Positions 6,411 through 9,726 of a stretch of 64,000 nt of DNA are shown one piece after another. The stretch covers positions 29,767 through 93,766 of the forward strand of contig CAVXIY010000023.1 in assembly GCA_963761955.1 (NCBI GenBank), read 5' to 3'. Position numbers and translations under genes: made by a program. Under the pieces are notes generated by a model. It made no database searches and was not told the origin of the DNA. It saw only the letters and a list, made by a program, of their open reading frames with translations. The first letter of the stretch is position 1. The number at the start of each line of letters is the position of its first letter. The stretch comes from an uncultured Actinomycetota bacterium. Its GTDB lineage: Bacteria; Actinomycetota; Actinomycetes; Propionibacteriales; Propionibacteriaceae.

Positions 6411-7764
6411 TCAGCCGCCGCGGGTGAGCACGATCGTGACGACTCGATACAACTCGGGCGTCAAGTCCTGCTCGGGCACCGTCAGGCGCCAGTCGCCGAA
6501 CTCCAGCGTGTACACGAACCGGTCCGGCGCCGGAATGCTGATCGAGAGCTGCTCCGTCTCGACGAGCATCAGCAGCTGCCGGATCTCCTCGCCCTCCGGA
6601 TCGCTGTTCAGGTCGAGTTCCCCGGTACGGGTGGCGCCGGCGAAGCCTCCGCTCCGGCGGACGGCAACGACACTTGGGGTGCCGGGCGGTGCGGCGGCTC
6701 CGGATTCGGCCGGGGGGTCGCCGAGTGCTATCTGGTCCCCGAGCACCCCCACCGTCGTCCAGGCCGCCTCGACCTTCGCCGCCACCGACTGATCATTGCC
6801 GAACAGCCGCCGTGCGGAACTGAGCGTGGCGCGGGCGAAGGACTCGAAGTCGGCTGTCGGCGACAGCTCGCCCGCCACCAGGGCGTCGTACCAGATCTTG
6901 CCCGCCACCGACCAACTCTCGCCGCCCAGATCAACCGCCAGCAGCGCGAACGCGCGGTTGGGGATGCCGGAATTGAGGTGCACGCCGCCGTTGTCCGCGG
7001 CGGTGTTCACGTAGTCGGCCATCGATCCGACCTGCGGATCCTTGCCGAGCTGCGGATCGTCGTACGCGGTGCCGGGCTCGCTCATCGACCTGAGGGCTCG
7101 CGCATTGACGCCGGGCAGGAAGATGCCCTCCCCGATCAGCCAATCCGCATCGCCGGCGCTCTGGCCGAGAGCGCGCTGCTTGGCCATCGAGGCAAAGGCA
7201 TCGCTGATGCTCTCGTTCAGTGCGCCGGATTGCCCCTGGTAGATCAAGCCGACGGTGAACTGGGTGACCCCGTGGGTGAACTCATGGGCCATCACGTCCA
7301 TCGGCTTGGTGAACCGGTCGAAGATCTGACCGTCGCCGTCGCCGAAGACCAGCTGGGTTCCGTCCCAGAACGCATTGTCATAGTTGCGCCCGTAGTGGAC
7401 AGTGATGGACAACGGGCTTCCGTTCCCGTCCGCCGACTGCCGGGCGAACTGGCTGGCGAACAGGTCCAGGACTTGACCTGAGGAGTCGAATGCCTCATCG
7501 ACGGCAATGTCCCCGCTGATCGGATCACCGTCAGCCCGGACGAGCTCTCCGGGAAGCACCTCGGTGTTGTTCGCGTCGTGCACCTGGCGGGTGACGCCGG
7601 TGACGACAGGGGTGACCGTGACCTGCTCCGGCACGGCATCCCGGCGTGGCTCGCAGTCGATCGTCGACAGCGAGAGTGGCTTCGCTTGCGGTGCTCGCAA
7701 GCGGGTTCTGGGCCCGCTCAGCAACATTGCGAAGTAGGTATGGGGGGACGAATTGGCAACTCAT
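6411..7764 (-). CDS. Protealysin-like M4 metallopeptidase fused to a C-terminal emfourin-like inhibitor domain (one frameshift near 7640)
   Basis: Propeptide CQFVPPYLL, NAFWDG, HEFTH, GALNESISD and GGVHLNSG; C-terminal VRRSGGFAG...PDRFVYTL. Confidence 0.88.
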
Positions 7765-7866: not shown

Positions 7867-8143
7867 CTTTTCGGTTCCAAGTTGGTTTGTTGCCGGTCAT
7901 CTCGGAGTGGTCGGCTTGACGGCTGGGCAAGGAGAGTTCAGGCTGACCAATGAACGGGTTTGCAACCGCTGACACGTCGGGTTAACCTGTTCTGTGGGTC
8001 GATTGAAGACACGCAATCGGTGACGGCCACTCATCATTGGGGGGCGATTCCTTGGCCACGGGGGCCAGGGACCGGGAACGCGCGCGGAGGTCGACTTCCG
8101 CGATCGGACGCGTTGGAGAGCCAAAGAGGCACCTAACGCGATT

Positions 8144-8174
8144 TTGTCATGTCCACTTTAGGACATGTCATAAT
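8144..8174 (+). promoter_or_regulatory. Promoter/operator of the peptide gene
   Basis: Inverted repeat CATGTCC-ACTTTA-GGACATG (8148-8167) overlapping TTGTCA (8144-8149) and next to CATAAT (8169-8174). Confidence 0.55.
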
Positions 8175-8293
8175 ACTGCTATCGGATCCGCGTGACTGCA
8201 GCGCAGCCACTGCGTAGGTTCCTTCTTGAAACGTCAGGATTCCCACCATCGACCGCAGCAAGCGGGGTGGCTGGGCCAAGGAAGGAAACTCTC

Positions 8294-8459
8294 ATGCGCA
8301 ACTCCAACACTGCCCGTCGCCTTATCGGCACGGTCGCCGCCGGCGCCGTCACCCTGACCGCCTGCGCGGTGGTCATGCTGGCCCCGACCAGCGCGGATGC
8401 GGTCAACTCGCTCCAGGATCAACTCGCTGGTCCACTCGCTGAAGGTCAACTCGCTCTAG
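8294..8459 (+). CDS. Secreted repeat-containing peptide precursor (about 54 aa after correcting one extra base)
   Basis: RBS AAGGAAGGA; 36-aa Sec signal ending ADA; then VNSL and, in the +1 frame, INSL-VHSL-K-VNSL-TAG (8457-8459). The uncorrected frame runs to 8515. Confidence 0.7.
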
Positions 8460-8696
8460 AGCTGGCCTCCTCCCACCAGACGGCAACAAGGGCGCGAAAA
8501 GTGCGGAGCAACTAGTGAAATCGAGCGCGAAGTTCGATAGTGTCTGTGTCAGGCAGACCGTCTCTAGATCTTCCATCAGGAAGCCGGGATACCTGACGTT
8601 CCCGGGTCGGTCAGGTGGTGTTGTGAGCGCCACCGCGCCTGTAAGGCCGCGTAGGACTTTCCCCGAGGATCTGCGCGGATCTCCTCCCCCTGGGCG

Positions 8697-8728
8697 ACGC
8701 CCGCGGTCCGGATTCGGACCGCGGGCGT
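8697..8728. terminator. Strong hairpin between convergent genes
   Basis: Perfect 14-bp stem ACGCCCGCGGTCCG-GATT-CGGACCGCGGGCGT. Confidence 0.75.
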
Positions 8729-8745
8729 AGCTTTCTCGCGAGCGT

Positions 8746-9726
8746 TCAGGTCAGGCTGGCCGGCTCCGGGGCGAAGATATCCGACCGCACGAGCGCGGCC
8801 CCCAACTGGAGTCGCGTCGTCACTCCCAACTCCTCCATAAGTTCCGAAATCCACCGCCGTACCGAACGCACGTTCAGGTTCAACGTGTTGGCGATAGCCG
8901 AATCCGTGGACCCGGTCATCAGCATGGAAATCAGCATTTGCCGGCGCGGGTCGGTGTCTGCTGAAAACGATGTCATGATCGGCACAGACGCGTCCCATAC
9001 CGCTTCGAAAAGCCATTGCAGGGCTTCCACGAGCAGGGGGTGGCGAACAATTGACGCCCGCAGTTCGTGGCCGGGATTGTAAGAGCGCATCGATGGAATA
9101 AGCGCGACGTGCGAATCGACGAGAATGAGCTTCATCGGAACCAGCGCCGTGCGGGATCGTTCGCCCCGTCCGGCGAAGAGGGCCAGCTCCTGGAGCCGGT
9201 CCGGATCGAAACCGGGATGGTAGACACCGCGTAGCACGACGTCGCGCTCCAACGCCTGCCACTCCGGCGTGGTGCGCAGCAGCGCCTCGGTGACCTGGTG
9301 CCGGCTGGTGACGTAGGGCGGCTTGTCGAACGCGCAGATCTCCTTGCGCGCACTGGCGAGCAGCTCACGATGCGCCTCGACGATGGCCTCACGCCCGATG
9401 AGGATCTTGACCCCTTCCTCCTCGTCCTCCTGGGCGGCGAGGAGGTGGCTCTCCAACGACTCGGCCGCGACGCTGGCCAGCTCGATCTCGGAGAATCGCT
9501 GCGCCTTGAGGTGGTTCACGACCTCGAGCAGGGGGAGGGTCCGCCACTGACTCTTCGATGCCTGGGTCGCGAGACCGAGCTTGCGCAGCTCCTCGAGCGC
9601 ATCGACGACGTCGTCCTGGCTGACCGCCGCGAGCTTCGCCAGATCACTCACCGACGCCGATGCCAAGGGCCCGAGTGCGATATATACGGCCTCGGCTTCA
9701 GCGCTGATGCCAAGCGGCTGAAGCAT
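8746..9726 (-). CDS. TrmB-like N-terminal HTH / ligand-binding domain / LuxR-type C-terminal HTH transcriptional regulator
   Basis: MLQPLGIS..AEAVYIAL, PMKLILVD..VALIP and GSTDSAIANTLNLNVRSVRRWISELMEELGVTTRLQLG; RBS GGAGGGG before ATG 9726. Confidence 0.88.
   Translation of the reverse strand: MLQPLGISAEAEAVYIALGPLASASVSDLAKLAAVSQDDVVDALEELRKLGLATQASKSQWRTLPLLEVVNHLKAQRFSEIELASVAAESLESHLLAAQEDEEEGVKILIGREAIVEAHRELLASARKEICAFDKPPYVTSRHQVTEALLRTTPEWQALERDVVLRGVYHPGFDPDRLQELALFAGRGERSRTALVPMKLILVDSHVALIPSMRSYNPGHELRASIVRHPLLVEALQWLFEAVWDASVPIMTSFSADTDPRRQMLISMLMTGSTDSAIANTLNLNVRSVRRWISELMEELGVTTRLQLGAALVRSDIFAPEPASLT

Follow-up and report, generated by a model that had tools for sequence, protein, structure and literature searches.

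The closest described systems are the RRNPP signalling pairs of the Bacillota, such as Rap-Phr, NprR-NprX and PlcR-PapR, in which a small Sec-type propeptide is encoded beside a cytoplasmic regulator of 250–500 aa (PMC10075063, PMC5199041). In these systems the short active word is often C-terminal, word repeats occur within a gene, and many allelic words are found (PMC10075063, PMC5199041). One of the two papers places quorum sensing by peptides and cytoplasmic receptors in the Bacillota and gives the signals of Actinobacteria as typically small molecules (PMC10075063).

The locus considered here lies in a 64,000-nt stretch of DNA from an uncultured member of the Propionibacteriaceae (the window), and in several respects it resembles an RRNPP pair. 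The precursor, 54 aa long in the orthologous locus L001, falls within the RRNPP propeptide range of 10–100 aa, and the adjacent regulator, at 326 aa, falls within the receptor range. RRNPP propeptides carry a Sec signal peptide (or use the SHP/PptAB route). The leader of the cassette looks Sec-type from its hydropathy and A-x-A site, and about 25 relatives are leaderless. The features of the locus are as follows.

6411..7764, minus strand: M4 protease of the protealysin type with a fused emfourin-like inhibitor domain; divergent neighbour, 5' end frame-broken in the assembly
8141..8174, no strand assigned: operator-like palindrome with its TGTCC-N6-GGACA core at 8150-8165; the putative start site is about 70 nt further downstream
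8192..8238, plus strand: putative promoter, with GTGACT at 8192-8197, TAGGTT at 8215-8220 and the conserved AACGTCAGG at 8230-8238
8278..8285, plus strand: purine-rich ribosome-binding site, from the sequence
8294..8459, plus strand: precursor gene, its frame broken in the assembly by one extra C at 8413/8414; 54 aa in relatives
8294..8401, plus strand: predicted Sec signal peptide, 36 aa, with an A-D-A end, from sequence and hydropathy
8402..8456, plus strand: four tetrapeptide copies, VNSL, INSL, VHSL and VNSL, the last abutting the stop
8515..8543, plus strand: putative further promoter-like element preceding the RNA (GTGAAA ... TAGTGT), with conservation limited to the close clade
8568..8738, plus strand: conserved five-hairpin non-coding RNA with a C-rich loop and linker, between the two stops, ending in a 14-bp hairpin at 8697-8728
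8746..9726, minus strand: regulator, 326 aa, with a winged HTH, a long helix, a predicted dead PLD-like domain (about 103-252) and a LuxR-type HTH

As assembled, the precursor gene is divided between two frames. The motif TC[AC]ACTCGCT is found at 8403, 8419, 8431 and 8446, with copy 1 in the frame of the ATG at 8294 and copies 2–4 in the +1 frame together with the TAG (8457-8459), an arrangement reported in the first-pass annotation and recovered when the motif positions were re-derived; the 3.05-Mb genome holds 20 copies on both strands, four of them inside these 55 bases. The leader, judged by eye and by hydropathy, has a basic N-region, a hydrophobic core and the A-D-A end immediately before the first word. 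Removal of one base had been proposed to restore a repeat-bearing tail, and L001, whose regulator is 98% identical, indeed lacks the extra C and encodes a 36-aa leader followed by INSL-R-INSL-VHSL-K-VNSL-stop. The extra C is also missing in contigs of DNA runs X3 and X6 and RNA runs X15 and X18 (these four runs come from four studies and are 4 of the 8 public runs examined; no other listed contig piece spans the site), and past the break the substitutions between L001 and the window are silent in the corrected frame only. Comparison with L001 over 6.5 kb gives the window 14 single extra bases and 4 single missing ones, so single-base insertions are common in this assembly, as had been supposed, although some may be strain differences. 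Because L001 and the four runs lack the base, the intact gene would encode the signal peptide followed by VNSL-R-INSL-VHSL-K-VNSL, and the frame break is most likely an assembly error. The uncorrected tail, QDQLAGPL, whose conservation in homologues the first-pass annotation had set down as the sign against a repeat-bearing gene, was rejected on the evidence of L001 and the contigs of X3, X6, X15 and X18 and is absent from the precursors of all relatives.

Peptide words were assigned to loci by eye. They follow the pattern x-[N/H/R/T]-[S/T/G/N]-[hydrophobic], and 27 different words were labelled, VNSL, GHSL, ANGL and GRGV among them, a variety that, from the sequences, appears as expected for diversifying signals. 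The word forms the exact end of the ORF in 81 of 92 intact precursors. Of the 66 precursors with a leader, 20 have their first word directly after an A-x-A-type site. An identical four-residue stretch is thus delimited by the signal-peptidase site on one side and by the stop codon on the other, and the unit is probably a tetrapeptide. A pentapeptide of the type (K/R)[VI]NSL, which had been the unit suggested earlier, was dropped on this direct A-x-A adjacency, on the presence of K/R before only 184 of 586 motif copies, and on the common abutment of copies with a period of 4 (e.g. ANGLANGL). Copies per precursor range from 1 to 52, with spacers and copy number free to vary and the word conserved, and some relatives' precursors exceed the 54 aa of L001. 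At the divergent loci L089/L136, L090/L137, L133, L161, L163 and L165 the precursors are 138 to >400 aa long with 16–52 xNGx copies, and at L028, L029 and L035 two leaderless GHSL-repeat ORFs lie in tandem downstream of the regulator.

A clear leader is present in about 65 precursors, including that of the window, often with the cut site exactly at the word. The signal peptide is absent from about 25 precursors of the GHSL and GHTL types, from the nearest large clade, and export is thus not universal (a script counted 26 leaderless precursors, with L024 mis-started, L090 atypical and L061 misfiled the opposite way). Leaderless precursors are almost pure repeats and are restricted to one GH[ST]L region of the tree (3 changes). 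They retain the regulator and, since they also keep the ribosome-binding site, palindrome and RNA and recur in many separate assemblies, they look real.

Of 118 genomes from the genus of the window, 110 encode the regulator (E < 1e-50), among them 66 of the 68 of good quality. It is nearly always a single copy, and a family-wide draw has it in 2 of 40 genera; the named relatives are Microlunatus, Friedmanniella and Propionibacteriaceae. From a first set of 75 distinct orthologous loci, 71 had sufficient flank, and these were scored by a strict rule calling for a short ORF whose C-terminal three residues recur. Downstream on the opposite strand 55 of 71 loci match (1 spurious), compared with 4/71, 2/68 and 2/68 in the other quadrants and 7 in 1000 random kb. 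Once single-copy, internal-copy, very long and frame-broken cases were read by eye, a convergent precursor was seen in 70 of the 71 loci; in the remaining one, L027, a mobile-element-like sequence was read in its place. A second set of 38 loci yielded 29 intact and 2 partial precursors, with none in L129, L134, L135, L158, L159 (which has a short contig), L160 and L164 (7/38). Orthologues of the regulator therefore have the linked small ORF that the first-pass annotation led one to look for, convergent and with a word that is usually repeated and ends at the stop, in 70/71 and 31/38 loci. The stops of the two genes are 286 nt apart in the window.

Upstream of the regulator, gnd is present in 67 of 68 loci, and with so fixed a chromosomal place part of the linkage is plain synteny. 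A tblastn search found no phage homologue. The distant homologues L092-L119 and most of L223-L251 mostly have no adjacent peptide in a flank scan, so the fold needs none next door. Five distant homologues (L240, L241, L242, L248 and L250), all from large multi-paralogue genomes and with the same regulator architecture, occur with secreted peptides in which Trp motifs are repeated or form the end (NDWQ, SKWD, MIWG, NEWD and EPSWE); unlike these, the genus cassette is a convergent core locus present in one copy, and its words have the form x-[NHR]-[STG]-[LVI].

Pfam searches with the regulator matched HTH_36, with TrmB (below cut-off) and GerE as weak matches, and gave no TPR match at E 0.1. An AlphaFold2 model (mean pLDDT 77.5, pTM 0.54) has TrmBL2 as its best structural match (E 3e-12), and model residues 102-252, a predicted alpha/beta domain, match the PLD-family folds of NucT (Z 16.8, rmsd 2.8 Å, 134 residues aligned) and Nuc (Z 16.2), as well as the TrmB sugar-binding domain (Z 14.9). 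The lack of a TPR match and the PLD-like model matches (Z 14–17) agree with the earlier proposal of a receptor fold unlike TPR. Active PLD/Nuc nucleases have the motif HxKxxxxD with a catalytic His. In all 96 regulator rows the HKD-like motif is instead P-M-K-x4-D, with Pro197 replacing the catalytic His and Lys199 and Asp204 kept, and by sequence the protein thus falls outside the active PLD/Nuc class. Residues F133, D134, P137, Y138, E155, R166, Y169, P197, M198, K199 and D204 are invariant over the 96 rows. From the model we infer that the central domain is a catalytically dead nuclease fold reused as a putative pocket. Leads from the ESM Atlas were all under 0.9, and a complex prediction pairing the central-domain dimer of L012 with its own 33-residue mature peptide gave a score of 0.02, which speaks neither for nor against binding.

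Covariation between peptide and receptor, which the first-pass annotation had put forward as a test, is seen in the counts at regulator residue 167. Among the first 66 labelled pairs, residue 167 is G/A/S in all 11 with a V/I/L-first word and C/V in 54 of 55 with a G/A-first word. The rule fixed on these 66 rows held in 10/10 bulky cases (G/A/S) of 29 later pairs, which also show Cys in 11 of 16 G/A cases and Ser in 5 GRGY/GRGF cases of one clade. When pooled, G/A/S occupies the position in 21/21 V/I/L-first and 4/4 Ser-first pairs, the latter with Ala or Gly, and C/V in 65/71 G/A-first pairs; C/V and a bulky first residue never occur together in the 96 rows, and column 167 is the best predictor of the first peptide residue among all columns. 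The residue shifts with the word across 5 to 8 tree changes, for example between the sisters L017 (word ANGV, Cys at 167) and L068 (word VNGI, Gly at 167), and a GRGY/GRGF clade of 6 breaks the converse of the rule. The count pattern is not significant after correction for kinship: the pre-set rule leaves 3 supported pairs (p 0.25), and a post hoc regrouping of Ser gives 5 same, 0 opposite and 1 tie (p about 0.06), in trees that leave out unlabelled loci and the frameshifted or partial regulators L041, L054, L063, L065, L067 and L069. We regard the correspondence between residue 167 and the size of the first peptide residue as suggestive, a hint and not proof. Covariation of peptide position 2 with residue 139 also gave good counts and was rejected, with 2 supported pairs and p about 1.

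Two parts of the cassette, the palindrome and a structured RNA, are absent from the first-pass annotation. In 82 of 102 loci the TGTCC-N6-GGACA palindrome stands before the peptide gene, and after it, at distances that hardly vary, come GTGAC, a -10-like box of the TAG/TAA type and often AACGTCAGG. Its position upstream of the -35-like box would fit an activator site, of which the regulator is the putative owner. A sigma-70 scan recovered neither of the putative promoters and no U-rich terminator. The strict palindrome pattern occurs 0–11 times per genome on both strands of ten genus genomes, with 1 control match in all, and outside the genus 5 times in 3 of 10 genomes. Additional sites at orthologous places in different genomes suggest a small regulon.

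Other operator-like sites, in genome G000 (C16:191300-191760) and at L186, L188, L204, L213 and L216, have another short motif nearby. In G000 this motif resembles GATGAACCCCCGAGC, and at the five loci it is similar; it is possibly another C-rich small-RNA family of the regulon, and in G000 a secreted-protein gene comes after it. Another operator-like site, conserved in three genomes (G000 C28 near 91824 on the minus strand, L187 and L200), precedes a long leader and a small gene resembling Hpt (Pfam E 0.034, under the cut-off), and the G000 C28 leader contains a stretch complementary to the C-rich linker of the five-hairpin RNA. The palindrome at G000 C29:77171 was rejected as an operator and is more probably the hairpin of a terminator. 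In the window, the interval from the protease to the palindrome contains a further conserved non-coding stretch (7960-8130), which has matches in about 40 of 75 loci and is possibly another structured RNA or a promoter.

The 14-bp hairpin noted earlier between the convergent genes has its arms at 8697-8710 and 8715-8728 and proves to be the last stem of a larger structured RNA, with a folding score of z -3.96. An alignment of 25 sequences chosen by hand has 95.6% of its cells paired, and both partners vary at 13 of the 40 pairs, most of these in helices 3–5; the covariation lies above 500 shuffles and all slid controls, with the structure drawn from the same 25 sequences. A pattern search over 112 loci detects the RNA in 65 and not in the other 47. 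A cmscan search of Rfam at E up to 5 gave no 6C match and no family, with 4 weak matches far below gathering scores. The AACGTCAGG of the peptide leader is the complement of the second loop of the RNA. A genome-wide search gave no convincing mRNA targets, the counts being 14 sites seen against 19 expected for AACGTCAGG and 6 against 1.4, partly look-alike modules, for AGGGGGAGGA. Contigs from RNA runs cover the peptide gene and the RNA, one of them spanning 8268-8694, and show neither strand, level, ends nor a single transcript; run X17 has no contig over the peptide gene. Repeated C-rich modules like the fourth hairpin and linker of the RNA lie at G000 C29:76600-76900, between genes judged by eye to be tig-like and clpP-like.

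Taken together, these observations lead us to propose, with a probability of roughly 0.6, that the cassette is a peptide signalling system comprising export, trimming to tetrapeptides, re-import, binding by the PLD-like domain, activation at the palindrome, feedback and a C-rich RNA output. Beyond the gene anatomy, we infer every step. In RRNPP systems the matured peptide returns into the cell to bind its receptor. The precursor is predicted to be exported through its Sec-type leader, signal peptidase would free the first word and other proteases the rest, and an oligopeptide transporter would import the VNSL-type tetrapeptides; an SBP_bac_5 binding protein, a generic feature, is present in the genome. 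The dead PLD-like domain would supply the pocket, in which residue 167 would leave space for the side chain of the first peptide residue, and the regulator would bind TGTCC-N6-GGACA upstream of the -35 element and activate the peptide gene in a positive feedback. The C-rich RNA would be the post-transcriptional output.

Three other explanations have to be weighed against peptide signalling by export and re-import. The narrowest concerns this copy only and holds that the extra base is genuine in the source strain, so that a broken allele, a signal-blind producer or cheater, retains one N-terminal VNSL word. L047 and L048, which bear one word directly after the leader and then an unrelated tail, give it some precedent, but five independent near-identical sequences without the base and further single-base extras within coding DNA (7557, 7646) make it very improbable. 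A broader alternative keeps the peptide as ligand of the regulator and does without normal secretion: the peptide would be cytoplasmic, or released by lysis and cut by the protealysin-like protease, and would report proteolytic state or kin death, not density. The roughly 25 leaderless repeat precursors, with a good ribosome-binding site and with regulator, palindrome and RNA retained, point in this direction, as does the M4-emfourin gene, a neighbour of the cassette at 53 of 61 loci. One source describes protealysin as intracellular (PMC9505478). We nevertheless think this quite unlikely, as leaders are clear in about 65 precursors, the leaderless forms occur in only one GH[ST]L part of the tree, and the protease is divergently transcribed and absent from 8 of 61 loci. 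In the window the protease apparently starts at ATG 7764 (MSCQFVPPYLL), with the extras near 7557 and 7646 relative to L001 breaking its frame; it may process or clear the peptide or be there by plain synteny, and its membership of the system is uncertain.

A third explanation is that the repeat peptide, secreted or on the surface, is a mere output of a regulator that senses a small metabolite. Archaeal TrmB senses sugars, and the fold match to TrmB/TrmBL2 includes the TrmB sugar-binding domain; many distant homologues lack an adjacent peptide, and a palindrome before the peptide gene would suit a simple target gene. This explanation, however, accounts neither for the changes of residue 167 with the first peptide residue (5 to 8 changes; L017/L068) nor for a conserved four-residue word amid free spacers and copy number, and we consider it unlikely. 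Returning to peptide signalling, we would give even odds to a wider proposition, that peptide communication with a dead PLD fold as receptor extends across the Actinomycetota and that in this genus tetrapeptide dialects cut from polyproteins signal through C-rich small RNAs, with one clade lacking the signal peptide and using another release route.

If true, the proposal would give direct access to kin recognition in the abundant Propionibacteriaceae of soil, through a single-copy system spread over the genus that combines 27 words with a new fold of receptor, a candidate operator and an output by RNA. Testing it would be inexpensive, as cultured Microlunatus species bear the locus (L023, L044, L057 and L066) and the ligands have four residues, and the single receptor position 167 yields a sharp prediction of specificity. 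We found no description of the cassette in the literature searched, which included few subscription papers and main texts without supplements.

The 6C sRNA of Actinobacteria is described as stem-loops whose single-stranded C-rich stretches pair with mRNAs (PMC6486639). The cassette RNA likewise has stem-loops and single-stranded C-rich stretches, but it has five hairpins, is without an Rfam match and is tied to the cassette. In the arbitrium system AimR-AimP-AimX, a single cassette encodes the receptor, its peptide and, downstream, a small RNA or effector; the present cassette also joins receptor, peptide and small RNA, but it is a chromosomal core locus beside gnd, with no phage homologue by tblastn and with an unrelated receptor fold. 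Like archaeal TrmB/TrmBL2, the regulator has a winged HTH, a long helix and a PLD-like domain, but it is 16% identical and has an additional C-terminal LuxR HTH; to our knowledge, TrmB proteins have no known peptide partner. In comparison with RRNPP systems, the genes are convergent, the word has four residues in up to 52 copies, a subgroup is leaderless and the host belongs to the Actinomycetota. The RRNPP TPR domain is lacking, and the receptor has instead a predicted PLD-like domain between its two HTHs; the cassette would therefore work like an RRNPP system without being a member of that family.
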